This document shows positions 976 to 19,738 of a stretch of DNA of 24,000 nucleotides, one piece after another (position 1 is the first letter of the stretch; every line of letters starts with the position of its first letter). Location of the stretch: contig JAVHRS010000035.1 in assembly GCA_036171755.1 (NCBI GenBank), positions 2,882 through 26,881 of the forward strand, read 5' to 3'. The notes beneath the pieces were generated by a model. That model worked only from the letters and a program-made list of their open reading frames with translations, searched no databases and was not told the origin of the DNA. The translations under genes and the position numbers were made by a program. Source of the stretch: Minisyncoccota bacterium (GTDB lineage Bacteria > Patescibacteriota > Minisyncoccia > Phycocordibacterales > UBA9973).

Positions 976-1062
976 AAGCACTAGTAAACGATACCCGACC
1001 TCTATCTAACACATGGAACTTGGGTGTCGGGACCCAGTTCTTTAAATCTAAAAAATAAGACA

Positions 1063-1980
1063 ATGACAACAGAAAAGTTGATCACGTCTGCTCAAACAGA
1101 CAAAGTCGCAGATCTTGGCAGAGAAGCTGTAAAGACTGCAGTTGGTAAAGTAAATCCAACAAGTACCAATGTTCAAACTGGGATCATCAGCAATGGTCGT
1201 GAGTTCAAAAACAGAGTTGAAGAAGCTGTAAAAGCTATCATTCTGGAAATGATTACACCCAACCAGTACGCCAATGAGGTGGTAAGCTCAAGCTATGCCT
1301 ACCCGAAGGAATACAAGATGAAACCGATCGAAGAACAGGTAAGATTCATTGCCGAAAAGTTCGGACTTGATCCGACACAAGCATTGGAATTTATCAAAAT
1401 GTTACCCGCATTACCTGAAGGTGCCGAAGGATGGTTCGCCATTCCAAAAGTATTATCAGTTGCAAAAAAACATTTTTCTGCGATTACCAATTCTGCCGAA
1501 CAGTATTGTGAAGCCGTGAAATTAGTTCACAGCAAACTTGCTGAAAGCCGTAGCTTCTACAATTACCGTGAAGGTCAGATTACCACCGCACAGATTCGCC
1601 AACATCCCCGTACCATCAGTTTCCTCGAACAATTGGAATCTGAACAACAGGGTGACATTCTGATTCTCGCCGTTCAATACGGAATGAGACATCGTGGCAA
1701 ATCAGTTCGCCGTGCAAGAGAAACGTTCTCAGGTAATGAATTCGGACTTGGAGCATTCGCTCTTGGCTATATGGCATTGGTTCACCCCGATCGTTATGTT
1801 CGTTGGGAAGAACTTGATACCGATTGTGCAGGTGACGAATTTGCTCCTGGTGCTGATGGCGTGTTCTCGAAGGCTCCGATCTTCTACTTCAGCGATGTCG
1901 AGCTTGAGTTCGACACGGTCGATGTGTCCCGTGCCCGCGGTAGCTATGGTTCTGCCTCGGCGTTCGTTCCGCAGAATTGA
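1063..1980 (+). CDS. DGR target (variable) protein, family not recognised
   Basis: Long ORF. The track starts it at GTG 1024; I prefer the first ATG at 1063 (MTTEKL...), though neither start has a clear RBS. The C-terminal ~46 codons are the VR. I see no signal peptide, TM segment or known VR scaffold motif. The gene is visibly more GC-rich than the flanking DNA. Confidence 0.85.
   Translation: MTTEKLITSAQTDKVADLGREAVKTAVGKVNPTSTNVQTGIISNGREFKNRVEEAVKAIILEMITPNQYANEVVSSSYAYPKEYKMKPIEEQVRFIAEKFGLDPTQALEFIKMLPALPEGAEGWFAIPKVLSVAKKHFSAITNSAEQYCEAVKLVHSKLAESRSFYNYREGQITTAQIRQHPRTISFLEQLESEQQGDILILAVQYGMRHRGKSVRRARETFSGNEFGLGAFALGYMALVHPDRYVRWEELDTDCAGDEFAPGADGVFSKAPIFYFSDVELEFDTVDVSRARGSYGSASAFVPQN
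1840..1977 (+). repeat. DGR variable region (VR)
   Basis: VR 1844-1974 aligns base for base with TR 2349-2479 (offset 505). There are 15 mismatches, and every one falls at a TR adenine: TR 2355, 2390, 2397, 2403, 2405, 2411, 2423, 2424, 2435, 2436, 2441, 2442, 2445, 2448 and 2477. TR AAAA at 2345-2348 versus VR TTTG would add four more if the repeat starts there. Confidence 0.95.
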
Positions 1981-2044
1981 TCCTTGTACTTTGAATTCTT
2001 GAATCTTTTGTTTCCTTGATTCTTGATCTCAAAAATTTTTTTGA

Positions 2045-2076
2045 ATAGGGTTATCCACATGGATGACCCTATTTTT
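2045..2076 (+). terminator. Rho-independent terminator after the target gene
   Basis: 12-bp stem AUAGGGUUAUCC / GGAUGACCCUAU (2045-2056 / 2061-2072) with an ACAU loop, followed by UUUU. It lies ~65 nt after the VR stop codon and could also correspond to the hairpin described downstream of VR in some DGRs. Confidence 0.8.
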
Positions 2077-2344
2077 GCGTTTAATTCAAAAACTGATATA
2101 GTAACTATGAGCCTAGGTTAGTGTATAGTCGTTTACGGATGACTATCACCGAACTCTTTCTCTTATGAGAAATCTCCGACCAGAATTATAGTGATTATGG
2201 TTACTATAAGAGCGTCGCTGTGATAAGGGATACTGCTTACTACTTTTTAAGGCAAGCATGTAAATGTGTTGCCAGATAAAATACAGAATTGTGATTCATG
2301 TGCAATATCATGTTTCGTGATTTGTGATTTGGATAGAAAGTAGT

Positions 2345-2482
2345 AAAACTCCTGATGCTGATGGCGTGTTCTCGAAGGCTCCGATCTTCAACTTCAACGA
2401 TGACAAGCTTAAGTTCGACACGAACGATGTGTCCAATGCCAACGATAACTATGGTTCTGCCTCGGCGTTCGTTCCGAAGTAT
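2345..2482 (+). repeat. DGR template repeat (TR)
   Basis: Invariant copy of the VR. It carries in-frame AAC/AAT codons (six Asn codons) at the positions that differ in VR. The first non-adenine mismatch is at 2480 (T versus A), marking the IMH/IMH*-type boundary. The 85-aa track ORF 2324..2581 is this repeat, not a gene. Confidence 0.95.
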
Positions 2483-2493
2483 CCAATATACAC

Positions 2494-2521
2494 AAAAGGT
2501 ATCCTGTTAGGGATACCTTTT
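2494..2521. terminator. Bidirectional terminator hairpin between TR and the avd 3' end
   Basis: AAAAGGUAUCC / GGAUACCUUUU stem (2494-2504 / 2511-2521). The GC core has U-rich tails on both strands: UUUUGCUUUUAU on plus and UUUUGUGUAUAUU on minus. It ends 5 nt before the avd stop codon (2526-2528). Confidence 0.7.
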
Positions 2522-2525
2522 GCTT

Positions 2526-2873
2526 TTATCGTTCAACCGAACGAATCCATCCACCAAGCATTCTACCGATCTCGTCGGTAATATTTTGAAGCAGAGTGTA
2601 CTTCTTTACATCAAGCGTTTTACTTTCTTTCATTAGTCGAACAAAGAAACGAAAAATGTTTAATTTTACACTGGCTTTTTCAAGTAAAAGTAATTTGCGT
2701 TCTTTTGAAGAATAACTTGCTTCTAAGACATATTCGAGAATATCAATCATTACATTTTCAGATCGTTCATAGATTGAAAATCTTTCATGTTTTGGGACTA
2801 ATGTTCTGTATTCATGAAATGTTTTATATAACTCGTGAATTTTTCTTAGAATTGGCACATCATTTTCATTCAT
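2526..2873 (-). CDS. avd: DGR accessory variability determinant (Avd), four-helix-bundle type
   Basis: 115 aa. ...LNIFRFFVRLMKESK...ITDEIGRMLGGWIRSVER closely parallels the Bordetella phage bAvd C-terminus as I recall it (LRFWLRFL...EVGRILGSWIARV). It sits immediately beside a DGR RT but on the opposite strand. Confidence 0.85.
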   Translation of the reverse strand: MNENDVPILRKIHELYKTFHEYRTLVPKHERFSIYERSENVMIDILEYVLEASYSSKERKLLLLEKASVKLNIFRFFVRLMKESKTLDVKKYTLLQNITDEIGRMLGGWIRSVER

Positions 2874-3929
2874 ATGCGTGTATTTATCAATTTATTTAAT
2901 TCATTAATTCAGCCAGAACACCTATTTTATTCATGGGAGGAATTTAAACGTGACAAAGGTTTAAAGGAAGATATTCTCTTATTTGAGAAAAATCTTGAAA
3001 GTGAAATATTTAAGCTTCACCGAGAACTAAAAGGAGAAGTGTATAAACATAGCGGATATGAAAGTTTCTTTATTTCAGATCCGAAACGAAGACATATCCA
3101 TAAAGCAACAGTTAGAGACCGTGTAGTACATCATGCAATTATGCATACATTGTATCCTCTTTACGACAAAACATTTATTGATAATTCATTTTCTTGTCGT
3201 GTTGGTAAAGGGACCCATAAAGGTGTTCTTGCCCTTAGATCTATGATTGCCAAGGCGAGTAAAAATAATACTCAAACTGTTTACATTCTCAAGTGTGATG
3301 TTGAGAAATTTTTTGATTCAGTTCATCATATTATTTTAATTGATATACTTAGAAAAAGAATTAGGGACAAAAAACTCATGGATTTACTGATAGAAGTAAT
3401 TGAGAGTTTTATAAGTGATCGTTCTACTTTATTTGATCGTGTAGGTTTACCAATTGGAAATCTTACATCTCAACTTTTTGCAAACATATACATGGATAAA
3501 TTTGACCAATATATGAAGCATGAATTGAAAGTAAAATACTATGCTCGTTACACAGATGACTTTGTTATTGTGAGTAAAAATAAAGAATACTTGTCTAACC
3601 TTAAATTAGATATTTCTAAATTCCTTAGTGAGTCACTAAGACTTACTATTCACCCAAAGAAAATTACCATTCGTAAGTATACTCATGGTATTGATTTTCT
3701 AGGACATGTTTCTTTTCCACATCATGTATTGATAAGAAAAAGAACCTTAGAAAGAGCTACAAGAAGAATTAATGAGAAGATTGTTTTGTATAAAGCAGGA
3801 TCTCTTGAGAAAGAGAAACTTGAAGCCACTTTATACTCATATCTTGGAGTCCTTTCTCATGCCAATGCTTATAGATTTTCTGAGAAACTGAAGAATGACT
3901 ATTTTCTTTCGGTTAATAATCCTAATTAA
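2874..3929 (+). CDS. DGR-type reverse transcriptase
   Basis: 351 aa. Contains IGNLTSQLFANIYM (the DGR-diagnostic [LIV]GxxxSQ motif), the catalytic box YTDDFVIV, DFLGH, and N-terminal DPKRRHIHKATVRDRVVHHA. Adjacent to a TR/VR pair and avd. Confidence 0.95.
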   Translation: MRVFINLFNSLIQPEHLFYSWEEFKRDKGLKEDILLFEKNLESEIFKLHRELKGEVYKHSGYESFFISDPKRRHIHKATVRDRVVHHAIMHTLYPLYDKTFIDNSFSCRVGKGTHKGVLALRSMIAKASKNNTQTVYILKCDVEKFFDSVHHIILIDILRKRIRDKKLMDLLIEVIESFISDRSTLFDRVGLPIGNLTSQLFANIYMDKFDQYMKHELKVKYYARYTDDFVIVSKNKEYLSNLKLDISKFLSESLRLTIHPKKITIRKYTHGIDFLGHVSFPHHVLIRKRTLERATRRINEKIVLYKAGSLEKEKLEATLYSYLGVLSHANAYRFSEKLKNDYFLSVNNPN

Positions 3930-3981: not shown

Positions 3982-5073
3982 TTACTGGCATTGAGGGCTT
4001 AATGTACGACTAGGAAATGAAGAAAGTAACGACTCTAAAGAAGTAAAGGATTTTATATATTTTTCATTTAATGACTTCCAACCATCACATGTTTCTGGAT
4101 AATAATATTTAGAAGTTGAATATGATGATGTGTAATACTTTCCAGTTGAGTTGGTGGTGTTTGTAGAAGTAGAAGAGGATGTTGAAGTCGCAGTAACAGC
4201 AGAAGTTGTAGTATTACCATTACATGTATTAGTAGACCATAACCCTAAAAGATTTGCTTGAGCATATTTTTGTGCTGTTTTAAATTCAGATTGATATTTA
4301 TATGGCGAGTTATAAGTATACTCATGTGCATATCCCTGTTCAATCATGTATTTATTATAAAATAGACCATCTTCTCTATATACATATGCTAAAGTACGCC
4401 CGTATTTATCGAGAGTGCCTTGAGTTGAATCACTTTCAATTCTAACTTTTTTCCCTGATAATAATTCTTTTGCTTTATTGGATGCCTCTTTACCAAAACA
4501 TTGAACTGGTTTCCTTGGATCAAGTGTTTCTGGGGTGTCTAATCCGATAAGGCGAAGCGTTATTATTGCTCCGTCTTTATTTATTTTAATAGTATCCCCA
4601 TCAACAACGCTTGAAACCGCATAATATTTATATTGAGAATTAGGCGAAGTTGTAGGTGTTTGTGCAGAAGTCACCGATTTAACTTCTTGTGCATTTTTTA
4701 CTTCTTGTTTAGCGGGTATTATTTCATTATTTATCTGTTGAGCTGGATTTTTTGTTTCTACTTGAACATTTGTATTTTCTAAAACATTATTATTTTGTGG
4801 AGCAGGTATTATTTCTGTTTTCTTTGGAAGAAAAATAGAAGAAACAATTAATAAGACAATTACAGCAACAATTTTTATTGTCCTTGAAAAGGAAAAATTA
4901 AATTTCTTTTGAATAAATTTAGAAATGACAGGAATTGTAATTAGTGAAGCAAGAATCATAAATATTCCACCTAGAATACTTTTTTCTAAAGTACTAAGAC
5001 CAGCTATTAACAACAATATACCTATGATCCAAGATAGAATGTTGATTAGATTTAATTTAATATTTTTATTCAT
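3982..5073 (-). CDS. Membrane-anchored thermonuclease (SNase) family nuclease
   Basis: Two N-terminal TM helices and a low-complexity linker precede the SNase core (VVDGDTIKI...RLIGLDTPET...CFGKEAS...DKYGRTLAYVY...GYAHEY). A Ser/Thr-rich tract and a small Cys-containing C-terminal domain (KYYYPETC...SPQC) follow. Confidence 0.85.
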   Translation of the reverse strand: MNKNIKLNLINILSWIIGILLLIAGLSTLEKSILGGIFMILASLITIPVISKFIQKKFNFSFSRTIKIVAVIVLLIVSSIFLPKKTEIIPAPQNNNVLENTNVQVETKNPAQQINNEIIPAKQEVKNAQEVKSVTSAQTPTTSPNSQYKYYAVSSVVDGDTIKINKDGAIITLRLIGLDTPETLDPRKPVQCFGKEASNKAKELLSGKKVRIESDSTQGTLDKYGRTLAYVYREDGLFYNKYMIEQGYAHEYTYNSPYKYQSEFKTAQKYAQANLLGLWSTNTCNGNTTTSAVTATSTSSSTSTNTTNSTGKYYTSSYSTSKYYYPETCDGWKSLNEKYIKSFTSLESLLSSFPSRTLSPQCQ

Positions 5074-5480: not shown

Positions 5481-6194
5481 TTATTCATATAAAACAGTTA
5501 AAATGCCAGTACCAGAGAAATCACCTTGGTTTGGGGTATGGATTGTTATTACAGATTTTCCATATTTGTAATCTATGTTAGGATTAACATTTATTTTTTC
5601 CTCTGGAATTCGTATCTTTGGATAAATACCGCCAAAAATAATTTGGTCTGAGTTGAAATGCTGAGTGTAAACAAGTTTATCATTCTTTGACATTGAATTA
5701 CTGCCAGCGTATAACTTCACATCAGCTGTAATTAACATTTTTTCTGTTGCGTCACTAGTTATAATATCTCCATTTTTATCTAAATAAACTACTTCAAGAA
5801 CAGGTCCATCATTCTCGACATCAGCATCCCAATTATCTTGTAGTCCTCCACTAACTCGTATGGCAGATAGTCCATCTATCTGTAAAGTTTTATTAGATGA
5901 TATTGGTGTTGTTGGGACAACTTGAGTATTTGCGACCACTGGTACAGTTTTTGGAGTGGTAACTATTTTATTTTGAACCACTGTATCTTTTTGTATTACG
6001 TTAGTTTCTGCTACCGCAACAGGACTACTTACTGTTGATTCGACAATTGGAATCTCATCTTGTATTGGAATTTGAGCAATAGGTTCTTTTTTGTTTGAGA
6101 ATTTAGAACCAACAAATAGACCAATAACAAGTATTGCAACTATAACAACGATCTTACCTGTCATAGTTTCCATAAATTGTTTTACATCTTTCAT
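5481..6194 (-). CDS. Signal-anchored secreted/surface protein, unknown function
   Basis: 237 aa with an N-terminal hydrophobic anchor IVVIVAILVIGLFVG. The rest is not recognised. It is the first gene after leader RNA copy B and is tightly packed with the two downstream genes. Confidence 0.7.
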   Translation of the reverse strand: MKDVKQFMETMTGKIVVIVAILVIGLFVGSKFSNKKEPIAQIPIQDEIPIVESTVSSPVAVAETNVIQKDTVVQNKIVTTPKTVPVVANTQVVPTTPISSNKTLQIDGLSAIRVSGGLQDNWDADVENDGPVLEVVYLDKNGDIITSDATEKMLITADVKLYAGSNSMSKNDKLVYTQHFNSDQIIFGGIYPKIRIPEEKINVNPNIDYKYGKSVITIHTPNQGDFSGTGILTVLYE

Positions 6195-6403
6195 ATTAGA
6201 TTTACTTTTGCGTTTTTAGTGATAAAACCTAGTGATAAGACACAAAAAGCCCACCACATAGGTAGAGACCGAAGTCTCTCATATCAGTTTCCCGATACGG
6301 CATATCACGCGACCCCATATGATGGGTTCTTTATGCGTGATATGACTAACTTTCACCATGCCTTTATTTCTAAAGGTTTAGGCTACTTAAACTATTAACT
6401 TGT
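6195..6403 (-). ncRNA. Structured ~200-nt 5' leader RNA, copy B
   Basis: 6202-6397 is the second copy of 627-820. Helix changes relative to copy A are compensated: CAUAUCACGC/GCGUGAUAUG, GAGAC-UUCG-GUCUC and AUCGG-GAAA-CUGAU. It starts ~7 nt downstream of a perfect minus-strand TATAAT (6415-6410) and ends at the ATG at 6194. Confidence 0.8.
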
Positions 6404-6409
6404 AAAGAA

Positions 6410-6415
6410 ATTATA
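6410..6415 (-). promoter_or_regulatory. -10 box (TATAAT) driving leader copy B and the nuclease operon
   Basis: Perfect TATAAT on the minus strand, placed just before the point where similarity between the two leader copies begins. The -35 is weak or unclear. Confidence 0.45.
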
Positions 6416-6519
6416 CCTTATTTTTTAAGGTTGCACCATATTAGCTCACATTTAAATATTTGTGTAGTCGAGTTATCAACTAGAAGAAATAAGACTATAA
6501 AAATAGTGCAGTATTTACA

Positions 6520-7110
6520 CTATTTATTTTTAATTTTATCCAAAATATCTGCATAAATATTTAATGGATTAGATAATATTTTATCACTTTTTGTTGAAAT
6601 AATTTTATAAAACTTTTCATAAAACCAGAGTTGATCTTCCTTTGAGGAATTAAATTTATCCCAAATTGAATTATTGGTGGCCATCTCATCTAAAATTGTT
6701 TTTAAATTATGTATCTTATCACAAAGAGAAACAGTAGTTGCCTCAAGTGAAGCATTTTCTAGATGCTTTAAATATTTTTCTTTTCTTATTTTCCATGTTT
6801 CTTTATCATTACTTTCCATCTCAGGATCTTTATCTTCTGATACTTCTTTTATTATTTGTAAAACTTTTTCACCAAAAGTATTTTGGATAGAATTCTCCTT
6901 CTCAGACATTAAAACTTTTACATCTTCCAAAACATCATGCAACAAACAGGCAATAAAAATATCTTCATCATCAGTAAATTGACTAGCAATATACATAACC
7001 GAAAAAGGGTGAGAAATATATGGAATCTTTTCCTCACCTTTTCGAAAATAACCATCATGGAATTTTGCAGCAATTTGAATTGCTGTATTCAACCTAGAAC
7101 TAAAATTCAT
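6520..7110 (-). CDS. HD-domain phosphohydrolase, RelA/SpoT-type (p)ppGpp-hydrolase-like (small alarmone hydrolase-like)
   Basis: AIQIAAKFHDGYFRKGEEKIPYISHPFSV...ACLLHDVLEDV matches the SpoT/Mesh1 HD hydrolase pattern (H..Q.RK...PY..HP ... LLHDvvED). The protein is 196 aa and single-domain. Confidence 0.8.
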   Translation of the reverse strand: MNFSSRLNTAIQIAAKFHDGYFRKGEEKIPYISHPFSVMYIASQFTDDEDIFIACLLHDVLEDVKVLMSEKENSIQNTFGEKVLQIIKEVSEDKDPEMESNDKETWKIRKEKYLKHLENASLEATTVSLCDKIHNLKTILDEMATNNSIWDKFNSSKEDQLWFYEKFYKIISTKSDKILSNPLNIYADILDKIKNK

Positions 7111-7115
7111 ATAAT

Positions 7116-7367
7116 TTATTGATTGAGTGTATGTCCTAAGTATTCAAAACGATCAATCATTTTTCCATCTTTCTCAACTTTCTCAAAAAACATATCTAGT
7201 GGGCGTGCTGAAACCATAGAGCCTTTTCGATCCTTTAAATCACCATTAAGAGGAATATAAACAACGAGTCTCTCTTCTGTTTCTGTATGACGAGCAATAG
7301 CAAGAACTTGTACAAGAAGCCCCTTAAAGTGTTTATAAATACCAAGTTTAACATCTAAATTATTCAT
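7116..7367 (-). CDS. DUF1653 family protein
   Basis: LGIYKHFKGLLVQVLAIARHTETEERLVVY...ARPLDMFFEKVEKDGKMIDRFEYLG matches the DUF1653 pattern as I remember it (YRHYKG.LY.V...A.HSETEE.LVVY...RPL.MF...V...G..V.RFEY.G). Confidence 0.8.
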   Translation of the reverse strand: MNNLDVKLGIYKHFKGLLVQVLAIARHTETEERLVVYIPLNGDLKDRKGSMVSARPLDMFFEKVEKDGKMIDRFEYLGHTLNQ

Positions 7368-7434: not shown

Positions 7435-8667
7435 ATGAAAGAGGGTCAAGAAAGTTTTATACATAAAGATAATAAAATTGAACAAAAGAACTTTTTTGAA
7501 AAAGGTCTTAAAATTGTTGTTGGTGGACCGCCACATTCAGGTAAATCTGTATTTCTTGATGGATTATTAAAAAATCTTCCATATAATACTCACTATTTTA
7601 GTGGATGCCCTGATGGCGAAGGCCCATGGCTCCAAAGACACTATACTGAAGATGAGGTAAAAGCATTACGTCGTAAAGGTTCGTTTACGGAAGAGTTTGT
7701 AAATTTTGCACATGATGCAGTCAAAGACTTTGATGGTCAACTTATGCTTATTGATATTGGTGGTCGAATTACTCCAGAAAATATGAAAATTATTTCAGGG
7801 GCGACTCACGCAATTATTCTTTCTGGTGATACTAAAAATTTTGATGAATGGAATGATTTTTTTAAGAAGGAAGGTATAGAAATTATTGCAAAGCTTCATA
7901 GTGATTATGAGGGTAAAGAAGATACAATAACGGAAGATAATGAACAAATACAAGGTAGTGTTCATTATCTTGAAAGAGGACAACATCCAGAAGATAGAGA
8001 GAGTATAAAATTTGTTGCTGAACATATTACCGAACTTGTTAAAAAAAATGAAGAGAAAAAGAATATATCATTAGAGGATAATAATGAGCTTTTGAAAGTG
8101 GACTCATTAGTTTTTGAATATAATCTTAAGGCTAATTATGATAAAGAAACAGTTCCTGAGACATTAACTGGCTTACAAAAATATTTAAAAGATAATTATA
8201 GTGATTCTAAACAAATCAAGATCGATGGGCGTATAAATTCATATCTTGCTGGTTTTTTAGGAACTGAACTTGCAAATGGAGAACGAAAAATATCTTTCAA
8301 TAGTCCAAATGGTTTTGTTGGATTAAAGGAACTCAATCAATCCGAAAATGGAAATGTTATTGATTGGGAACAAAAAGAAAATATTACAAAACATGGAGAT
8401 TCTTTTCTTGAAATTAATTTTAAACTAGACCCATCAAAGCCTTTTAAACCAGAAGATTTAGATGAAATGAATATCCCTAAGATTAGCACGGGTAAAATTG
8501 TATCTATTGGCGGTAAGGGTCCACATTGGCTTAGAACGTCTATTGCAATAGGATATAAAAAGGATGCACAAGTTATTGCTATGTTCATTCCAGGAGAAGG
8601 ATCTATTGTTGTACATTCAAAAGATATAGAAAAATATCCCCTTGGAACATTACTTGAAAATAAATAA
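7435..8667 (+). CDS. P-loop NTPase fused to tandem Csx3-like (Crn3 ring-nuclease-like) domains
   Basis: The N-terminus has a Walker A motif, VVGGPPHSGKS. The C-terminus KIVSIGGKGPHWLRTSIAIGYKKDAQVIAMFIPGEGSIVVHS parallels A. fulgidus Csx3 as I recall it (GVVISGRGPIWLHCFLAHKY...VAVYDPRLGAVVVQS). A degenerate copy lies upstream (IKIDGRINSYLAGFLGTEL...ISFNSPNGFVGL). Not verified by search. Confidence 0.65.
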   Translation: MKEGQESFIHKDNKIEQKNFFEKGLKIVVGGPPHSGKSVFLDGLLKNLPYNTHYFSGCPDGEGPWLQRHYTEDEVKALRRKGSFTEEFVNFAHDAVKDFDGQLMLIDIGGRITPENMKIISGATHAIILSGDTKNFDEWNDFFKKEGIEIIAKLHSDYEGKEDTITEDNEQIQGSVHYLERGQHPEDRESIKFVAEHITELVKKNEEKKNISLEDNNELLKVDSLVFEYNLKANYDKETVPETLTGLQKYLKDNYSDSKQIKIDGRINSYLAGFLGTELANGERKISFNSPNGFVGLKELNQSENGNVIDWEQKENITKHGDSFLEINFKLDPSKPFKPEDLDEMNIPKISTGKIVSIGGKGPHWLRTSIAIGYKKDAQVIAMFIPGEGSIVVHSKDIEKYPLGTLLENK

Positions 8668-8713: not shown

Positions 8714-9616
8714 CTAATTTAGCTTTTCCTCAATCATCTTGAACTCTGGAGTATTACCAAATTCAGATCGTATTTTTTCTAAAAGATTTTTGATCATCTC
8801 TTTATCCATTTTAATCATTCCAGATTCTTCAAGATTCTTACCTTCCTGTCGAAGTGATTGAAGCCCAATTACTTCAGCTAATTCGAATTGTCTTGTTTCT
8901 GGATTAGAAGCTAAACGAATCATATTAGGCCATTGTCCACTAATACCATAGATTGCTGTTGTTTGAAGTGTTCCTAATGCCCCCAAACCAGCAGGAGCGT
9001 AAGCAACCTTACCTGATTCCCAGTCACCAACAGTCATACCGGCTTTTTGAGACGCTTCAACAAGAGCGGAAATAATTTTATTTTTCCCATCACCAGAAAT
9101 TTCTTCCGTAGTAATTTTATTGTCCCCAAAAGGTACAAATACAAGATTTTCTACTGTTGTCCCCATTTCTTCAGCAAGTGCTAAATGTTGATCAGCTGAT
9201 ATAGGGTGTCCACCTTGTAAAACAAATGTTTTACCCGATGCACTTCCTTCAATTCTCTGTCCACGAGCATCACGAGAAGCTTCATGTCGCCATTCAGACA
9301 AATTGATTTCAACGGGTTCTGATCCTGGTACAACAAGAAGAGCTTTTTTAGGTAATCCTGCTATCATTTCAGTGAGAGCAAGAAATATTCCAGATGCATG
9401 AGCCTGCCCAGGCAAAGCTATCTTGTCTGCATTTTTAATCTTACTAAGATTTGCAGAAACATATTCTTTTACTTGATCAATTAGATGCTTATCTTTTTCA
9501 AGATTAAGATTCAATACTTCTGTCTTTATATTTTCTCCAGTAATTGTAGGTACTGTTGAAAATGTGGATTCTGGTTGCTTTTCAGCAGAATTTACACGTT
9601 CAAATTTTGGTTCCAT
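8714..9616 (-). CDS. Unknown two-domain protein, paralog of 9718..10548
   Basis: 300 aa. It is collinear with the upstream gene product: EINLSEWRHEASRDAR versus ELNLHDFRHNQARPKR; TTVENLVFVPF versus GTETLVFANL; YAPAGLGALGTLQTTAIYGISGQWP versus MITAGLSPVNAILVTALHALCESWC; FELAEVIGL versus FHFTDLIQL. It has its own TGn-TATAAT -10 box on the minus strand (9653-9648). Confidence 0.75.
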   Translation of the reverse strand: MEPKFERVNSAEKQPESTFSTVPTITGENIKTEVLNLNLEKDKHLIDQVKEYVSANLSKIKNADKIALPGQAHASGIFLALTEMIAGLPKKALLVVPGSEPVEINLSEWRHEASRDARGQRIEGSASGKTFVLQGGHPISADQHLALAEEMGTTVENLVFVPFGDNKITTEEISGDGKNKIISALVEASQKAGMTVGDWESGKVAYAPAGLGALGTLQTTAIYGISGQWPNMIRLASNPETRQFELAEVIGLQSLRQEGKNLEESGMIKMDKEMIKNLLEKIRSEFGNTPEFKMIEEKLN

Positions 9617-9673
9617 ATATTTTATAAAGTTAATTACTAATAATTTGATTATAACATTTTTTTACAATAAAAA

Positions 9674-9700
9674 AGAGCGATTCCAATGTGGAACCGCTCT
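9674..9700 (-). terminator. Rho-independent terminator after 9718..10548
   Basis: On the minus strand: AGAGCGGUUCCA-CAU-UGGAAUCGCUCU followed by UUUUUUAUUG. Confidence 0.75.
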
Positions 9701-9717
9701 TTGCCAGTATGTTTAGA

Positions 9718-10548
9718 TTACCGGTTAATTTTTCTCAATTCATCCCCGAGTAACGTTCCTTCGGGATGTTCATTGAGCAATTGCTCAAAAACATCTTTAG
9801 GAACAAGAACGGGAGCACTCCCAGCGTTTGCAGTTCTGCCAAGGGCTTCCATTTTTCCCAACTGTATTAAGTCAGTGAAATGGAAAGTTCCTTCTTTGTT
9901 TTCTGCAACTGGCTGAGAACACCAGCTTTCACAAAGAGCATGTAGAGCAGTTACCAAAATTGCATTTACTGGGGAAAGTCCCGCAGTAATCATGATAACT
10001 CTGCGACTGGCAATTGAGTTACTAACTCCAGCACTTGAAAGTGCATTTGTTAACTCTTCAAGAAGCCATTCCGCTAAACCATTTTGACCTAAGTCAATCT
10101 GGCCAAGCTGAAGGTTAGCAAATACCAGTGTTTCAGTCCCAGCCAACTCAGAGAGCTCGGCTTTTTGGTGTTCAGGTACTTCACGTCCTGAAGCATTCAC
10201 AATAATCACTGCATCCTGGGACAAATTGTCCTCAGTTGCAAGGAATGTTGCACGCTTCGGCCTTGCTTGATTGTGACGGAAATCATGGAGATTTAACTCT
10301 CCCTTATTAATTCCATCAGGTCCAATCAAAGCAATCGTGGGAAATGTATTATTCTTTCCACGCAAGAATGCGCAGATTGAACTTCCAACTCCTGGTATCG
10401 GATGAAGCACTACTACCTCTTCTGTAGAGGCATTGACTCCAGAAATTTGAGCTTTAATCTGCTCTGCAATTGGAGTTCCGGGAACAATACTGAATGCGTA
10501 ATTCTTTTCACCTTGTACGCGAGGGTTTGTTGAAAATAAAGTTTTCAT
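9718..10548 (-). CDS. Unknown two-domain (Rossmann-like?) protein, paralog of 8714..9616
   Basis: 276 aa and relatively GC-rich. Strand-loop-helix elements VVVLHPIPGVGSSICAFL and RVIMITAGLSPVNAILVTALHAL suggest nucleotide- or ligand-binding folds. No family recognised with confidence. Confidence 0.75.
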   Translation of the reverse strand: MKTLFSTNPRVQGEKNYAFSIVPGTPIAEQIKAQISGVNASTEEVVVLHPIPGVGSSICAFLRGKNNTFPTIALIGPDGINKGELNLHDFRHNQARPKRATFLATEDNLSQDAVIIVNASGREVPEHQKAELSELAGTETLVFANLQLGQIDLGQNGLAEWLLEELTNALSSAGVSNSIASRRVIMITAGLSPVNAILVTALHALCESWCSQPVAENKEGTFHFTDLIQLGKMEALGRTANAGSAPVLVPKDVFEQLLNEHPEGTLLGDELRKINR

Positions 10549-10730: not shown

Positions 10731-10759
10731 ATGATAGCATATTTATACTTCTTTGTCAA
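10731..10759 (-). promoter_or_regulatory. Candidate promoter for 9718..10548
   Basis: On the minus strand: TTGACA (10759-10754), a 17-nt spacer, then TATCAT (10736-10731). It lies downstream of the hammerhead and upstream of the 19-bp hairpin. Confidence 0.45.
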
Positions 10760-10801
10760 GTATTATATTGACATAAAATATAAATAATGTTAAAAAACAA
10801 T

Positions 10802-10854
10802 TCTATTTTCGTCCTTTTGGACTCATCAGTCAGGGCACACACCCTGAGAATAAA
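10802..10854 (-). ncRNA. Type III hammerhead self-cleaving ribozyme
   Basis: Minus-strand RNA: UUUAUUC^UCAGGG-UGUGUG-CCCUGA-CUGAUGA-GUCC-AAAA-GGAC-GAA-AAUAGA. The core is complete: C3-A9 CUGAUGA, the G10.1/C11.1 pair, G12A13A14, the A15.1-U16.1 pair and C17. Stems I (6 bp) and II (4 bp) are closed hairpins. Stem III is open: 6 bp, AAUAGA/UUUAUU, including one G.U. The predicted cleavage is after C17, between plus positions 10848 and 10847. Confidence 0.85.
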
Positions 10855-10899
10855 GGGTTCAGGAATATGTCCATCCCCCTTATTTTAATTAAAGAACAA

Positions 10900-11784
10900 T
10901 TACAGTCTCCTCAACACGGCCTCATCAAATACATTTATAGCATCAGAGCTTACTACGTTAGCAAGTTTAAAAACTTGTTGTACTAAATCTGTAGCTTCTG
11001 TTTTTGAGAGTTTAGGTTGTAGGTTCTGATTGATAGATTCTTGTAAATACCACTGTCTAGGTGATAATAACTTGAACCCAGCATCACTAACTTTTTCTCT
11101 CCATCCATCTTCTGGAAGAATTTCTTCATCTTCATGACCTTCATAAAAAGGTTTAGAGGATTCAGGCATCCACGAAGACATGTTTTGCGAACAGTATCGA
11201 AAACCTTTTACATCAAAATAATCATATCCGAGTTTTTTAATTTCTGTTAAAAAACTCAAGTCTGATACTCCTGAAATATAAGGATGTGCAATTGGCAAAC
11301 ACGATACACCGAACTCTTTTGCAAGAGCTAATGTATGCAAATGTTTTTGAAGAGAAACTTTTTCAATACTCCAATTTCCAGTTATACCTAGTATAAGATA
11401 AAAATTTGGATATTGTGCTAATTTTTGCATAACTTCACGACTAATTGGCCATTTTGTTACGCAAGTTGTAAGTTTTGCAACACTACTTGCTTTTTCCATC
11501 CATTCCCATAGGTATTTTTCAATTTTCGGGAAGAACGGATCAGTAATTGCAGTAAATCCTACAAAGTCACCTTTTAGAATTTTCCAAGGAAATTCTTTAA
11601 AGCGTTTTTGTTCATCCGAATCAGTATCAATCCATGGTGTGACATTCACAAAGCTACATGCTTTATTTATCCCCATTAATGGATTTTGATTCCAAATTTC
11701 TCTACGTACTTCATGCTCTGTGATGAAGCAGTATTTACAGGCAACTGGACATGCCGGCTCACCTGAAACGAATTTTTGTTTCAT
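10900..11784 (-). CDS. Radical SAM enzyme (SplB-like/'DNA repair photolyase'-type barrel)
   Basis: Contains CPVACKYCF (CxxxCxxC), followed by GFTAITDPFFPKIE and CVTKWP, which resemble the COG1533-type tDPYqP.E / TK pattern. I prefer the ATG at 11784 (MKQKFVSGEPACPVACKYC). The track start at 11859 would overlap the upstream gene by ~100 nt. Confidence 0.8.
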   Translation of the reverse strand: MKQKFVSGEPACPVACKYCFITEHEVRREIWNQNPLMGINKACSFVNVTPWIDTDSDEQKRFKEFPWKILKGDFVGFTAITDPFFPKIEKYLWEWMEKASSVAKLTTCVTKWPISREVMQKLAQYPNFYLILGITGNWSIEKVSLQKHLHTLALAKEFGVSCLPIAHPYISGVSDLSFLTEIKKLGYDYFDVKGFRYCSQNMSSWMPESSKPFYEGHEDEEILPEDGWREKVSDAGFKLLSPRQWYLQESINQNLQPKLSKTEATDLVQQVFKLANVVSSDAINVFDEAVLRRL

Positions 11785-12340
11785 TATCAATTTTTGGTTT
11801 TTGTATCTCACATATACCAATGATTTCATCGAGCACCTTATTGGGTGATTGATCTGCATTAATTACATGTAAGAGATTTTTTGAAGAATAAAATTCAAGT
11901 AGCTGTGGTATCCTACCTAGTTCAATAAGTAAGCGTTCGTTCATTTTTTCAAGTGAATCATCTTTTCTGTTTCTGTCTAAGGCACGTTTTATACATAACT
12001 CATCACTGAGTTCAAAATATATAACATGTGTAGGTTTAATAGAAAATAATTCAGCTTGATGTACATTTCGTGGAAATCCATCAACAACCCATGAATCTAA
12101 ATCCTGAAGTTTTGATTGTGCAATTTGCACAGTTAGTTCGTCAGGAAGTGGTTTCCATGTTTTTTGATTAAAGTGGTCTCGAATAGATTGATGCAAGGAG
12201 TGCTCAAGGTTAGATGCTATTTCGCGTGATACATCACCAATAGAAATATGTGGTATTTTGTATTTTTGCGAAAGCATCTCACCTTGAGTTCCTTTACCTG
12301 TACCTGGTTTACCTAACAATACGATTTTCATATCTTTCAT
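11759..12340 (-). CDS. Adenylate-kinase-like nucleoside monophosphate kinase (short, no zinc lid)
   Basis: IVLLGKPGTGKGTQGEMLSQKYKIPHISIGD and VVDGFPRN match the Adk P-loop and NMP-binding signatures (GxPGxGKGTQ, DGFPR). Its 3' end overlaps the radical SAM start, suggesting translational coupling. Confidence 0.8.
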   Translation of the reverse strand: MKDMKIVLLGKPGTGKGTQGEMLSQKYKIPHISIGDVSREIASNLEHSLHQSIRDHFNQKTWKPLPDELTVQIAQSKLQDLDSWVVDGFPRNVHQAELFSIKPTHVIYFELSDELCIKRALDRNRKDDSLEKMNERLLIELGRIPQLLEFYSSKNLLHVINADQSPNKVLDEIIGICEIQKPKIDNETKIRFR

Positions 12341-12352
12341 TGTATTTTAAGA

Positions 12353-13582
12353 TTAAGAATTCGTAAAGAGGTTATTATAGGTAAAACTTTTTTTGCAAAC
12401 TTTAGTCTTTCTATCCTCTGGAAGCTCAATCATCTCAAGTAACCTAGAAGGATTAAAACCGAAGCTTTTTTGTTCATGAATATAATATTTCTCAATACAA
12501 TATTTGCAATCGAAACATTTCTTCATTGCAGTAGCTATTGGCCACCATGAGTTCAAACAAGTGATTTCAGGAACTTTTGGGAAATTAGGAAAATTAACTT
12601 CTCCAACATCCTTCATTCCCTTATCTCTACAACCATCTTGCTGGCATATCATACCAGTAAGAAACCTCATAAAAGTGAGATCTCCTAAACGAATTTTACC
12701 TCTAACTTCTATATGAGGATTTTCGTTTAAAAAGAAACACGTCGTGCAACATGATATACATTTAAGGCGATTACTTGCCTCAACATCACATTTCTGTTGC
12801 ACTTCATTCCCAGCAACAAACTTTACGTCGTAGCCAAGTTCTTTTAAAAACTCGATACTACCTTCACGAGGTTCAGATAGTCCTTGACAAGTCGTAAGAA
12901 GTGGACAACTTACCTCACTACATTTCACTAATTTTGGTGAATTGTAATAAGGGTTATATGTCCACTTATGCCCAAGCAAGAAGTCCACAGCACAGCTTGT
13001 CCTTGTGAACAACTGCACTCCAAACTCTTTACTTGCTGCTAAAGTATCAGACCAGATTTCGGGTGTAATTTGCTTTACCCGCAGGACCCATTCGGTCACT
13101 TCTGCGGGTTGCATTTCGTTAACAAGCATCTCATCCCCACGAAATCCAGCCACTACTGCCGCTCGACAATTGACTTCACTAAGACGACGGAAGATATAAT
13201 TAATTGTCTCCCGATTAGTATTGTACGGCGGAGTCAATGGTCTTATATACCCAATAGCAGGAACCCCTACCTCATTTAAGAGGCGGATATTCTCGTATCG
13301 GTGCTCATGTCCTACATTTTCCATACTTCTAAGTTCAGAGATGGAAACGAGGACCACGATGTTCAAGCCTTTGTCCTTACGAAGACGAAGATCAGCGACC
13401 TTACCCTCGCAAAGACGACCCTTCAAAATCAAACCTACTGGACCCTCATGATGAGTCTCCAATAGATCATCCAGTTTTGTGAGCGTATCCGACCACTGAA
13501 GAGTCGGGTCCCCATAAAAGTTATTTATAGAGACAGGAATCTGTCGAAGCAAACTCTTATACATTTCTGTTTTTTCTTTCAT
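12353..13582 (-). CDS. Radical-SAM-like barrel paralog lacking the N-terminal CxxxCxxC, with a Cys-rich C-terminal extension
   Basis: The N-terminal half parallels the neighbouring radical SAM protein: VSINNFYGDPTLQW versus GFTAITDPFFPK, and VVAGFRG versus DVKGFRY. No Cys triad precedes it. The C-terminal half carries CSEVSCPLLTTC, CDVEASNRLKCISCCTTCF, CQQDGC and CFDCKYCI. Confidence 0.7.
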   Translation of the reverse strand: MKEKTEMYKSLLRQIPVSINNFYGDPTLQWSDTLTKLDDLLETHHEGPVGLILKGRLCEGKVADLRLRKDKGLNIVVLVSISELRSMENVGHEHRYENIRLLNEVGVPAIGYIRPLTPPYNTNRETINYIFRRLSEVNCRAAVVAGFRGDEMLVNEMQPAEVTEWVLRVKQITPEIWSDTLAASKEFGVQLFTRTSCAVDFLLGHKWTYNPYYNSPKLVKCSEVSCPLLTTCQGLSEPREGSIEFLKELGYDVKFVAGNEVQQKCDVEASNRLKCISCCTTCFFLNENPHIEVRGKIRLGDLTFMRFLTGMICQQDGCRDKGMKDVGEVNFPNFPKVPEITCLNSWWPIATAMKKCFDCKYCIEKYYIHEQKSFGFNPSRLLEMIELPEDRKTKVCKKSFTYNNLFTNS

Positions 13583-13673
13583 TTTTTTATTTATTTTAGT
13601 TTACAAGAGTGATGATAATATCACCACCCCAAAAACTAAAATAAATTCTGAAAGAAAAGTTCCTATCTTTCTA

Positions 13674-15020
13674 CTACAAAGCAATCTTATTTATTGCTTT
13701 AATAAACCTCTCTGCATCTTCTTCTGTGTTCTGTAATCCAAATGAAGCTCTCACAAATCCTGGTACTGCATTTTCCTTACCATTTTGTACATCCTTTATG
13801 ATTTGTGTTTCATCTTTTATTTTAAGTAATTTACGGACTACATTATAAACACAGAAGCTTCCAGCTCTAACTCCAATACCATATTCTTTATTAAGTCTCT
13901 CTGCAACTTCTTTATTAGTCATGCCTTTAATATTAAAAGGAATGACTGTGTTTAAATGTTTTTCATTTACATAAATATCTATTTTTGGATTCTTCTTCAT
14001 TTCCTCGTACACTTTCTTAGTTAATCCTTTCTCATATTCCTCTATATTTTTTATTCCAATTTCTTTAACTTTATTTAAGGCTATTGCCATAGACACAGCA
14101 CCAATAGCATTCGGAGTTCCTGGATCATGAGCAATTTGGTTATGATATCTAAGAAATTCTCCATTTTTTGTGATATAAGGTAAATTTCCACCCCCAATTT
14201 CATAAGAAATAAATTGATCAAAGAAATCTTTTGGTCCTATTAAGAATCCTCCACCGTATGGTGCATAAAATTTATGCCCTGAGGCGGCTAAGAAATCTAT
14301 ACCCATTTCTTCCATGTTTATTTCATGGTGTTGTATATACTGACATCCATCAACGATAAAGTATGCACCATTTTCATGAACAATTTTACCTATTTCTTTT
14401 ATCGGAGGACAGTATCCTGTAACATTTGATGAAGCTGTAAGAACAAAAACTTTGATTTTATTCTTAATAAATATTTTTTTAATATCTTCTAAGTCAAATT
14501 CAAATTCATCATTAACAGAATATTTTACAATTTGTTTACAACCTTCTTCTTGGATCTTTTTATTTACACTTTCCATTTCACTTATTGCCACTTGATTTAC
14601 TCCAAGTGATTTTATCCCTTCATTTTTCACCCAAGGAAGCCATGATGAGCTATGTTCTATATCAGAAACAGCTACTTTTCCATCAAGAAATGAAAAGAAG
14701 TGAGAGATAGAATTCATTGCTCCTGTTGTGTTTCCAGTGAATACTACATATGAATCATTTGGTGCTCCGACAAATTTACAGATAGTATTTCGACTATCTT
14801 CATATATGTCTGTAGATTTCTCTGACTTAGCTCCTGCTCCACGATGGACAGAACCATAAGAAATCATATAATCCATAACTCCTTTTTCTACATCTATAAA
14901 TGGTGAAGTTGTCGCGGCATTATCTAGATTCACATAAGAAACCTTTTCTAGTTTTTTTGTCTCTACTTGATACTCAAGTATTTCTTTTCGAAATAATTTT
15001 TTTGGATTAATTATATTCAT
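13674..15020 (-). CDS. Class V aminotransferase-fold PLP enzyme, cysteine-desulfurase-like
   Basis: Contains YVNLDNAATT, SVHRGAGAKSEKST and ASGHKFYAPYGGGFLIG (PLP lysine). VRAGSFCVYN is comparable to the SufS/CsdA RxGxHC active-site cysteine loop. Confidence 0.8.
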   Translation of the reverse strand: MNIINPKKLFRKEILEYQVETKKLEKVSYVNLDNAATTSPFIDVEKGVMDYMISYGSVHRGAGAKSEKSTDIYEDSRNTICKFVGAPNDSYVVFTGNTTGAMNSISHFFSFLDGKVAVSDIEHSSSWLPWVKNEGIKSLGVNQVAISEMESVNKKIQEEGCKQIVKYSVNDEFEFDLEDIKKIFIKNKIKVFVLTASSNVTGYCPPIKEIGKIVHENGAYFIVDGCQYIQHHEINMEEMGIDFLAASGHKFYAPYGGGFLIGPKDFFDQFISYEIGGGNLPYITKNGEFLRYHNQIAHDPGTPNAIGAVSMAIALNKVKEIGIKNIEEYEKGLTKKVYEEMKKNPKIDIYVNEKHLNTVIPFNIKGMTNKEVAERLNKEYGIGVRAGSFCVYNVVRKLLKIKDETQIIKDVQNGKENAVPGFVRASFGLQNTEEDAERFIKAINKIAL

Positions 15021-15159
15021 AAATATTTTTTTGTATTATGTAACCATTTTTTATTTAGTTTTCAATGAACGATGAACCATTCTAATAATATCTTTTACTA
15101 GAATGAATTAATTAAAAATTGGTTTTTAACTAATTTATTCTAACAAAAAAATAAAAAAA

Positions 15160-15228
15160 GTGGTCGGGAAGTCTCTTCTATAAGTATAACGCATAAAACA
15201 ATACTTAATAAAGAGATCTCCCAACCAC
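15160..15228. other. Long imperfect hairpin in a 500-nt non-coding gap
   Basis: GUGGUCGGGAAGUCUCU (15160-15176) pairs with AGAGAUCUCCCAACCAC (15212-15228) to give 17 bp, of which 3 are non-canonical on the plus strand (C.A at 15165/15223, A.C at 15170/15218, G.U at 15171/15217). On the minus strand two of the three become G.U wobbles and the third C.A. The loop is ~35 nt, with an A-run before and a T-run after. Function unknown. Confidence 0.4.
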
Positions 15229-15527
15229 TTTTATGTGATCAGTATCAACATATCTTGCGAAACAATAGCAGACCTCAGCTATGTTTCTTATCTATTTTAC
15301 TAGATAGAATCTGTTGGACCAATTCTTGGTCAAAGTTTTACATTTCAATTAGCTAGGTATAGTATAAATAAATAAAAATATTTGTCAAGGGGTGTGGGTA
15401 ATGTCTAAACACATTTGGCACTTTTTACTAAACTTAATAAATGAGTATTTTAATCAGTTAGTTACCAACAGTATGGACATGGGACGCTCTGGACTCCCAT
15501 GGAGGGTTGCGTCATTAATGTAGATAT

Positions 15528-19573: not shown

Positions 19574-19651
19574 TTTTTTGTAACTTGTAGCTTTGTGGGT
19601 CACAGCTCAACGTCGAGCATGTAGGTCCTCAAAACTAACAGGTTGTCCCTG

Positions 19652-19738
19652 CGGAAGGGGGGAGATTCGAACTCCCGAGGAGCTTTCACCCCTGACAGTT
19701 TTCAAGACTGTTCCATTAGACCACTCTGGCACCCTTCC
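19652..19738 (-). tRNA. tRNA-Ser (anticodon UGA), type II with long variable arm
   Basis: Minus-strand cloverleaf: acceptor GGAAGGG/CCCUUCC plus discriminator G; anticodon arm ACAGU-CUUGAAA-ACUGU; variable stem GGGG/CUCC; T arm GGGAG-UUCGAAU-CUCCC. No CCA is encoded. Confidence 0.9.

Follow-up and report, generated by a model that had tools for sequence, protein, structure and literature searches.

A stretch of 24,000 nucleotides from a Minisyncoccota bacterium (GenBank assembly GCA_036171755.1, contig JAVHRS010000035.1, positions 2,882 to 26,881; hereafter the window, whose own numbering is used throughout) contains an operon of four minus-strand genes. I will refer to them as A (a SufS-like cysteine desulfurase), B (a cysteine-rich protein with a radical S-adenosylmethionine (SAM) fold), C (a nucleoside monophosphate (NMP) kinase) and D (a radical SAM enzyme). 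The operon is one version of a real, conserved and uncharacterised cassette, the core of which is B and D together with either a desulfurase or a cupin. The existence of this unit, its modularity, its carriage by phages and its link to Csx3 are new information.

A first reading of the window from its letters alone (the sequence-only reading) had described four linked genes separated by gaps of 91 and 12 nt and then an overlap, with a nested hairpin in the first gap. All of the open reading frames (ORFs) and spacings were recovered, as follows:

13674..15020, minus strand: gene A, SufS-like class V pyridoxal phosphate (PLP) enzyme of the cysteine desulfurase type, 448 aa
13583..13673, minus strand: nested hairpin between A and B, from RNA folding
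12353..13582, minus strand: gene B, radical-SAM-fold barrel with a Cys-rich C-terminal domain, 409 aa
11759..12340, minus strand: gene C, 193 aa, NMP kinase with a short LID, from the adenylate / UMP-CMP kinase family
10900..11784, minus strand: gene D, 294 aa, radical SAM enzyme carrying CPVACKYC (the ORF reaches 11859)

The start of D is almost certainly the ATG at 11784, within the ORF 10900-11859, because a called protein of 294 aa (P0001) is 100% identical to the shorter version and the homologues have 290-300 aa. With this start, C and D share 26 nt (11759-11784). The hairpin between A and B folds at -30 kcal/mol (z = -7.2), and 0 of 200 shuffled sequences fold equally well. It is not a classical terminator, since no U-run follows the inner stem.

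The case for a conserved cassette rests on a census of gene neighbourhoods. I gathered 93 loci (L001 and so on) from contig look-ups and from scans of genomes, viral sequences and metagenomes, the last with an alignment of D. The loci were scored with hidden Markov models built for this analysis and dereplicated at 90% identity of D, giving 30 groups with adequate flanks, to which the counts below refer unless otherwise noted. B and D are adjacent in all 30, a linkage far beyond chance. A desulfurase is present in 21 loci and a cupin (about 155-175 aa) in the other 9: always one, never both. In the cyanobacterial and cyanophage versions the cupin occupies the operon position of the desulfurase. 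An NMP kinase is found in 12 loci (7 of the 9 with a cupin, 5 of the 21 with a desulfurase), and 11 of the 12 belong to the ADK family. Linkage is thus conserved in other genomes, and the check by which the sequence-only reading could have been refuted does not refute it. The four genes it had treated as a unit occur as the exact set of A, B, kinase and D in only 5 of the 30 loci.

Other genes join the core less regularly. A TrmB-like regulator accompanies 7 of the 30 loci, AAA_33 kinases are found in L001 and L030, and the slot between B and the kinase is filled in L009 by a protein with a weak Nudix match (6744-7271, E 0.0096). A neighbour family with DHH-like motifs (about 310-334 aa) occurs in 6 loci.

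Members of this last family, here of about 280-334 aa, lie at L003 6399-7403, L016 11115-12071, L005 4401-5321, L024 9069-10004 and L001 4858-5694. Their motifs D[PH][QH]H, DxDxxG[SA], D[AT]H and WGG..GSP resemble by eye those of DHH/DHHA1 phosphoesterases, a likeness that is unconfirmed, and the family has no database match. In L007 the place of this Nudix-like protein, between B and the kinase, is taken by a protein of 158 aa (5962-6438) that begins with the ExExK-like sequence IERKFKV; it appears CYTH-like by eye, also unconfirmed, and has no Pfam match.

The cassette is rare as well as conserved. Out of 1.84 billion proteins, a profile of D retrieved just 71 cluster representatives, and word-indexed searches gave 137 matches for D and 143 for B. 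Neither protein scores above threshold with any family in Pfam, NCBIfam or PADLOC, and searches of the literature found no published description of B, of D or of the cassette. The sequence-only reading did not recognise the combination as a described pathway, and that judgment stands, since neither B nor D belongs to a curated family, comes close to a solved structure or figures in any literature found.

The assignment of D to the radical SAM enzymes depends on motif and fold. The three cysteines of its CxxxCxxC motif (CPVACKYC; C12, C16 and C19) are kept without exception in 40 homologues. The score against the Pfam model Radical_SAM (PF04055) is below gathering, 17.6 bits compared to 29.5, although a few homologues of D do have a precomputed match to this model. 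The AF2 model of D (pLDDT 96) has the radical SAM fold, and Foldseek against the PDB matches it with probability 1.0 to NifB, SuiB, PFL-AE, spore photoproduct lyase (SPL) and viperin, all at TM-scores of 0.46 or less. The best of these matches are the structures of NifB; the TM-score is 0.43 to viperin and 0.36-0.45 to SPL. With no match to the PADLOC pVip model at E 0.1 and none in NCBIfam, D is not a viperin, in agreement with the sequence-only reading, which had said that it lacks viperin motifs.

B was described as a Cys-rich, radical-SAM-like paralogue of its neighbour, and its barrel does align with that of D as a distant paralogue (hhalign probability 96%, E 5e-9). B itself has no family match in Pfam, NCBIfam or PADLOC, and weak matches to PF04055 appear in 16 of 41 homologues. 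Twelve of its cysteines are invariant. A central CxSCCT[TSNA]C motif is common to all 41 homologues (31 of them with the T), as is a second motif, C[FYL]xCxYC, which is C-terminal. At the N-terminus, where CxxxCxxC would be expected, B reads PVSINNFYGDP, without cysteine. More distant B-like proteins have the canonical CxxxCxxC at that end, and in one fusion of B with D (P0282, 820 aa) the C-terminal motif of B is missing and CFGCAYC lies instead N-terminal to the barrel. To judge from these motifs, B is probably a radical SAM enzyme in which the loop that binds the SAM cluster has been relocated and which has two further cluster sites. Its AF2 model (pLDDT 87) finds only generic TIM-barrel and radical SAM folds (Foldseek, PDB and BFVD), and nothing beyond chance matches resulted when the PDB was searched by sequence and profile with B, with D and with the DHH-like family.

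Two alternatives arise from these fold comparisons. In the first, the two radical SAM enzymes and the desulfurase would build a complex Fe-S species, a form of metallocluster or cofactor maturation like that of NifB or HydE/HydG. The place of NifB at the head of the matches to D, the 12 invariant cysteines of B and the presence of a dedicated desulfurase are what this view would predict. The TM-scores do not exceed 0.46, however, no candidate recipient enzyme is conserved nearby in the 30 loci, and the view explains neither the fusions with the kinase nor the carriage by phages nor the substitution of a cupin. I consider it very unlikely. In the second, B and D would be a pair of maturases acting on a small precursor peptide, making a ribosomally synthesised and post-translationally modified peptide (RiPP). 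The folds matched by D and B include SkfB, SuiB and TigE, and a Nif11-like peptide maturase is one of the viral (BFVD) matches. Against this, no small ORF is conserved (by all-against-all comparison of ORFs of at least 70 aa in the first 36 loci, and by the families modelled in the census of 93), no SPASM, RRE or peptide-binding family is matched, and coupling to a kinase would be atypical, all of which leaves a RiPP pathway scarcely credible.

The kinase, C, was correctly identified as such from its letters. It matches Pfam ADK (PF00406; 8e-23, 81.7 bits compared to a gathering score of 26.8) and TIGR01351 (1e-30), the motifs GKPGTGKG and DGFPR..Q are visible, and the nearest solved structures are adenylate kinases (PDB, 5e-21). 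It falls short of the housekeeping Adk, since all NCBIfam equivalogs are under their cut-offs (e.g., 106.6 compared to 262). The PADLOC model of pVip-kinase fusions matches weakly (3e-6). The kinase overlaps D in the window, as the sequence-only reading had noted, and ADK-D fusion proteins of about 487 aa are found in two protein clusters (P0021, P0022), which together support a functional tie between the kinase and D.

Gene A matches Aminotran_5 (1e-75) and the SufS subfamily model TIGR01979 (2e-74), in agreement with the PLP enzyme and SufS-like Cys loop that had been read from its sequence. Since it scores well under the curated SufS cut-off (250.6 bits compared to 475.1), it represents a divergent subfamily. 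A retains the complete set of desulfurase catalytic residues: across 18 cluster-linked copies, K250 (the PLP lysine), C390 (the loop cysteine), H123, D224, Q227 and R385 are each conserved to 95% or more. No SufE/SufU acceptor or SufBCD was found among the scanned ORFs of the window or the recurrent neighbour families. The subfamily is larger than the families of B and D, with 554 matches at E <= 1e-60. The desulfurases that lie 3' of D in L019, L021, L028, L046 and L053 belong to a different subfamily, about 32% identical.

A also matches the PADLOC models of DndA and SspA (about 1e-31), and DNA phosphorothioation of the Dnd or Ssp type was considered and rejected: no DndC/D/E or SspB/C/D partner is present, and none of the other three proteins, B, C or D, matches a Dnd or Ssp model.

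A has relatives outside the cassette, which constitute a second context for the subfamily, likewise uncharacterised. In L094 (8001-11006; the complete genome of a named species, Brenneria uluponensis, CP135917) and in L095 (7101-10065; a Magasanikbacteria metagenome-assembled genome, MAG) an A-like gene precedes one or two genes for class I SAM methyltransferases, in the first case with a LysE exporter and in the second with a divergent TrmB regulator. A reverse transcriptase and bAvd pair of a diversity-generating retroelement (DGR) is also near the A-like gene of L095.

Comparison of the four proteins across loci indicates that they have not descended together. D of the window is 74% identical to D of L016, a locus of the cupin type, and the kinase of the window is 47-48% identical to the kinases of L016 and L044, so that the nearest relatives of the two sit in the same loci. 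B of the window is only 34% identical to B of L016. Its affinities, and those of A, are with the lineage of the desulfurase type (64% to B of L014, and 66-71% for A), the D proteins of which are only 47-62% identical to that of the window. Pairwise identities correlate best between A and B (Spearman 0.62), less well between B and D (0.36) and least between A and D (0.25). Judging by these identities, the operon of the window is a recombinant of two co-inherited blocks, A with B and the kinase with D. Such inheritance suggests that the proteins work in pairs, the desulfurase with B and the kinase with D, and argues against one obligate complex of four proteins. Recombination of this sort also offers an experimental handle on which parts cooperate.

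The distribution of the cassette is sporadic. A scan of 185,579 species genomes turned up 20 loci, in Saccharibacteria, Moraniibacteriota, Uhrbacteria and other Patescibacteria and in a few MAGs of Alpha- and Gammaproteobacteria. A contig of Leptolyngbyaceae (L007) also carries it. The cassette is thus rare, patchy and horizontally mobile.

This distribution bears on the view that the cassette serves some Patescibacteria as a housekeeping system for inserting sulfur into, or otherwise modifying, tRNA, rRNA or a cofactor, with B and D as a split, sulfur-inserting radical SAM enzyme comparable to MiaB, LipA or BioB, and with A as the mobiliser of sulfur. Several copies lie among core genes (S15, GyrA, TyrRS, RRF, ComEC, Topo I, RuvC and YebC), most loci have a desulfurase, and the Cys-rich domain of B resembles an auxiliary-cluster domain. 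But a housekeeping function would not be expected of so few genomes and cluster representatives, of blocks shuffled between lineages or of a set carried by cyanophages and by islands with integrases. In addition, Pfam and NCBIfam revealed no RNA-binding domain in either protein, B or D, and the fusions with the kinase are left without explanation. I regard this view as unlikely, though deserving of attention.

Carriage by phages is best seen in cyanophages. The cassette is present on 8 IMG/VR contigs. In four viral loci (L038 and L040-L042) the series cupin, B, ADK and D lies directly upstream of a gene whose product is a portal / minor-head protein by its match to phrog_220 (E = 0). This protein shares 93.6% identity with gp012 of Aphanizomenon phage vB_AphaS-CL131. 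In L041 (5554-12806) and in L038 the inserted genes, which include a Csx3-like gene, are flanked by homologues of gp011 and of the portal gene gp012. In CL131 itself (L093, 7442-12981) there is no cassette, and gp011 abuts gp012. A tblastn search of 50,697 GenBank phage records with D from a phage locus gave no match. The empty site in CL131 and the lack of a homologue of D in GenBank phages indicate that the cassette is an insert in CL131-like cyanophages.

A phage setting brings to mind the hypermodification of DNA bases, as in phage thymidine pathways, where a combination of kinase, PLP enzyme and radical SAM enzyme is reportedly found; D would then act on DNA, as spore photoproduct lyase does. 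Many homologues of B and D bear the JGI label 'DNA repair photolyase' (COG1533), and SPL is among the fold matches of D. Several features of the cassette do not fit. C is an NMP kinase of the ADK family and not a kinase of 5-hmdU in DNA, A is SufS-like and not of the decarboxylase or aminotransferase type, D matches no SPL model and resembles SPL only at the low TM-scores given above, and the 30 loci have in common no transferase, glycosylase, DNA-binding protein or cognate restriction partner. Hypermodification of DNA seems to me improbable.

The reading I favour, though I would not give it quite an even chance, is that the cassette encodes a two-armed pathway that tailors a nucleotide, the product of which is used in conflict between virus and host. 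In one arm, C would phosphorylate a nucleoside monophosphate, or activate a hydroxyl group by phosphorylation, and pass its product to D, where the [4Fe-4S] cluster held by CxxxCxxC would, with SAM, start the radical chemistry. In the other arm, A would form a persulfide from cysteine and hand it to B, the 12 invariant cysteines of which could hold up to three Fe-S clusters. B might then complete the reaction by giving up sulfur, from a cluster either sacrificed or rebuilt, or by giving electrons. The product would be a modified nucleotide, possibly a thionucleotide. Observed are the order and coupling of the genes, their domains, the conservation of catalytic residues and of linkage, the fusions, the inheritance in blocks and the carriage by phages; the transfer of sulfur, the product and the biological role are inferred, as is the class of substrate.

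The class of substrate is suggested by the coupling of the kinase to D, the fusions, the sporadic AAA_33 kinases and the weak Nudix match, which together point to a nucleotide or a phosphorylated intermediate. The co-variation of A with B, the intact persulfide-forming site of A and the cysteine load of B suggest, in turn, that sulfur or clusters move from A to B.

Several observations weigh against this pathway. A kinase is absent from 18 of the 30 loci, from which it follows that the core does not require a nucleotide substrate. Proteins 62-65% identical to A adjoin class I SAM methyltransferases without B or D; together with the replacement of A by a cupin, this means that the role of A may not be donation of sulfur to B. 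No characterised radical SAM enzyme in the PDB comes close to B or D by Foldseek (TM-scores of 0.46 or less), no PADLOC defence model matches either protein, and many copies in Patescibacteria are found among housekeeping genes with no defence genes nearby. These points touch two suggestions of the sequence-only reading. That the coupled kinase implies a nucleotide substrate or product stands as far as the tie of kinase to D is concerned, and is weakened by the kinase's presence in only 12 of 30 loci. That the desulfurase serves for sulfur insertion or as a dedicated source of Fe-S clusters becomes one option only, given the cupin that can replace A and the relatives of A that pair with methyltransferases.

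If the proposed pathway is correct, it would be a new way of making modified nucleotides by enzymes, one that relies on two radical SAM families undescribed in databases, in one of which the cluster motif has shifted to the opposite end of the protein. Its arms for sulfur (the desulfurase) and its alternative (the cupin) would be interchangeable and traded amongst the ultra-small bacteria of the candidate phyla radiation (CPR), cyanobacteria and their phages, and it could yield new nucleoside analogues.

The operon is bordered by promoter-like sites and structured RNA elements:

15361..15388, minus strand: promoter-like site upstream of A, TTGACA, 16 nt, TATACT (11 of 12 consensus positions; a match to consensus only)
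15021..15358, minus strand: structured 5' leader or small RNA (-91.9 kcal/mol, z = -7.2)
10800..10885, minus strand: hairpin and type III hammerhead-like ribozyme directly after the stop codon of D (Rfam RF00008, 30.3 bits, E 0.0015)
10731..10759, minus strand: promoter-like site for neighbouring gene E, TTGACA, 17 nt, TATCAT, with TG (11 of 12 positions)

The first of these is the best promoter-like site on its strand in the region. The leader that follows it (about 340 nt) contains a long hairpin at about 15152-15233 and then a U-run, and so resembles a terminator or attenuator; the leader could be an attenuator or a riboswitch-like element. Rfam assigns the leader to no significant family, its only match being one to mir-3688 by chance (24.4 bits compared to a gathering score of 84). 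The site at 10731..10759 suggests that E forms a separate transcription unit, and a terminator-like hairpin follows E at 9672-9702.

The hammerhead-like element after D is of minimal form and has the exact core CUGAUGAG...CGAAA. Its score is below the Rfam gathering threshold (48.5 for RF00008), as is that of every copy in 9 loci. A search for the motif in 1.01 Mb of related loci gave 20 matches, all in sense orientation and none in antisense, as compared to about 0.4 per strand that I estimate by chance. There are 14 distinct copies. Their stems I-III covary, as judged by eye, and the stem-I loop UGUGUR is conserved. All are intergenic: they follow D, precede A or fall between Csx3, AAA and B, and each is preceded by a hairpin. 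The family may offer a natural example of ribozyme-insulated operons. The copies outside the window lie at these positions:

L014: 8113
L021: 5097 and 5894
L028: 5484
L033: 11469
L044: 1731
L048: 346
L053: 2016 and 2853
L058: 7692, 8833 and 12052

The genes next to the operon in the window belong in part to families associated with type III CRISPR systems:

9718..10548, minus strand: neighbour E, weak Csx15-like C-terminal half (NF040560, 2.8e-4; paralogue of F, 2e-6)
8714..9616, minus strand: neighbour F, Csx15-like C-terminal domain of the CARF type that binds cyclic tetra-adenylate (cA4) (NF040560, 2e-13, above cut-off; PADLOC Csx15, 1e-10)
7435..8667, plus strand: neighbour G, AAA-Csx3 fusion (PADLOC Csx3-AAA 8e-54 and C3a67; Pfam Cas_csx3 3.5e-9)
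3982-5073, minus strand: SNc+LTD (SNase) protein (C3a212, 6e-44)

Along with these, family searches of the window's ORFs recovered a DGR reverse transcriptase, bAvd, an HD protein and a serine recombinase, bearing out the accessory island that had been described, with its DGR, nuclease, Csx3-like gene and recombinase. Csx15 is a ring nuclease or sponge that binds cA4 (PMC13148439). Both Csx15-like proteins of the window have N-terminal domains without an assigned family. The SNc+LTD, AAA-Csx3 and two Csx15-like genes are orphans in that the window has no cas genes. E and F were considered as conserved parts of the cassette and rejected, the Csx15-like genes being confined to the window's own lineage.

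Genes for Csx3 or AAA-Csx3 recur as neighbours. Csx3-like genes adjoin the cassette in 7 of the 30 loci by an improved model and in 3 shorter loci besides, across CPR bacteria, a cyanobacterium and cyanophages, and in the cyanophages the gene is just upstream of the cassette. Neighbours in other loci include AbiEii, type I restriction-modification genes, Fic, integrases and, in L007, an AcrVA2-like gene.

One may suppose from this that the cassette is a module of type III CRISPR signalling that makes or destroys adenine-nucleotide species in concert with Csx3, AAA-Csx3 and Csx15, and that in phages it serves as an anti-CRISPR. The recurrence of Csx3, the company kept by the operon in the window, the AcrVA2-like gene, the adenylate-kinase type of C and the hammerheads, which link Csx3/AAA genes and B, D and A in a single transcript context, are all consistent with the idea. 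About two thirds of the loci, however, have neither a Csx3 nor a Csx15 neighbour, and adjacency within variable islands can be coincidence. Neither cas10 nor any other type III cas gene was found in the window, in precomputed Pfam annotations of the contigs that were looked up or among the modelled flank families; the sole cas gene seen is a Cas1 about 9 kb away in L003. I judge such a module to be quite unlikely.

A more specific notion is that the cassette makes an analogue of an adenine nucleotide (e.g., a sugar-modified or thio-ATP) that subverts signalling by cyclic oligoadenylates, either terminating or poisoning synthesis by Cas10 or acting as a decoy ligand. This would account for the pairing with Csx3, AAA-Csx3 and Csx15, for the adenylate-kinase type of kinase and for the insert in CL131-like cyanophages. 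It is a long shot, but if true it would be radical-SAM-based anti-CRISPR or CRISPR-ancillary chemistry without precedent.

The sequence-only reading thought a role in conflict or defence conceivable. The setting makes conflict plausible, considering the cyanophage genomes and the Csx3, AAA-Csx3 and Csx15 neighbours. Defence specifically does not fare so well, because carriage by phages makes counter-defence or takeover of the host as likely as defence.

The DGR occupies 1024-3929 of the window: a putative target at 1024-1980 (plus strand), bAvd at 2526-2873 (minus strand) and the reverse transcriptase at 2874-3929 (plus strand). There are two copies of the LOOT RNA motif (RF03000), at 687-807 and 6264-6384 (both minus strand; 74.9 and 73.6 bits). 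The DGR region is flanked by one of them, while the other is between the HD gene and an ORF of 237 aa. An Rfam match to tRNA-Sec at 19651-19738 (minus strand; 48.6 bits compared to 47) raised the matter of a link to selenium, which was rejected, since ARAGORN calls the element tRNA-Ser(UGA); it is most likely an ordinary tRNA-Ser with a long arm.

The cassette may be compared to several known systems. With spore photoproduct lyase and COG1533 it shares the JGI label on homologues of B and D and the radical SAM fold, but D reaches a TM-score of just 0.36-0.45 to SPL and matches no SPL family. A resembles the desulfurases DndA and SspA in matching both PADLOC models, but these are generic class V matches, SufS models score far better, and the partner genes of DndA and SspA are absent. 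The likeness to Csx3/Crn3, AAA-Csx3 (C3a67) and Csx15 lies in neighbours G, E and F, which belong to these families, and in the recurrence of Csx3 beside the cassette. The genes of the cassette differ from type III CRISPR ancillary genes in that they are themselves absent from the PADLOC catalogue searched, and no cas10 was seen.

Comparison may also be made to the clusters for 4'-thionucleosides, which combine a radical SAM enzyme with a nucleoside kinase and in which an Fe-S cluster is the donor of the sulfur that enters the nucleotide sugar (PMC12691670). Albomycin AbmM/AbmG and Photorhabdus thmABC, compared here by architecture only, likewise place a radical SAM enzyme beside a nucleoside or nucleotide kinase, and a nucleotide phosphohydrolase can accompany them (PMC12691670). 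Their kinases AbmG and ThmB are deoxynucleoside-kinase-like, however, while C is ADK-like, and those clusters have neither a SufS-like gene nor a Cys-rich paralogue.

BioB, LipA and MiaB/RimO follow the same logic as the cassette, in which a desulfurase is joined to a radical SAM cluster and to additional Fe-S clusters, and A and B co-vary. The cassette differs in that its Cys-rich auxiliary part is a separate, paralogous protein, and no family model of these enzymes matches.

Viperin with CMPK2-type kinases provides a precedent for the partnership of a radical SAM enzyme with a nucleotide kinase. As in viperin and the prokaryotic viperins (pVips), the radical SAM enzyme of the cassette is coupled and sometimes fused to an NMP kinase and is found in a setting related to conflict. 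The association with a kinase that characterises pVips is seen here in the overlap of C with D, in P0021 and P0022 and in the 12 of 30 loci that have a kinase. To this pairing the cassette adds a radical-SAM-fold protein with 12 invariant cysteines and a desulfurase or cupin, which viperin loci do not need. If the proposed pathway is correct, then the theme of viperin and thionucleosides, warfare by nucleotide analogues, would extend to CPR bacteria and to cassettes borne by phages.

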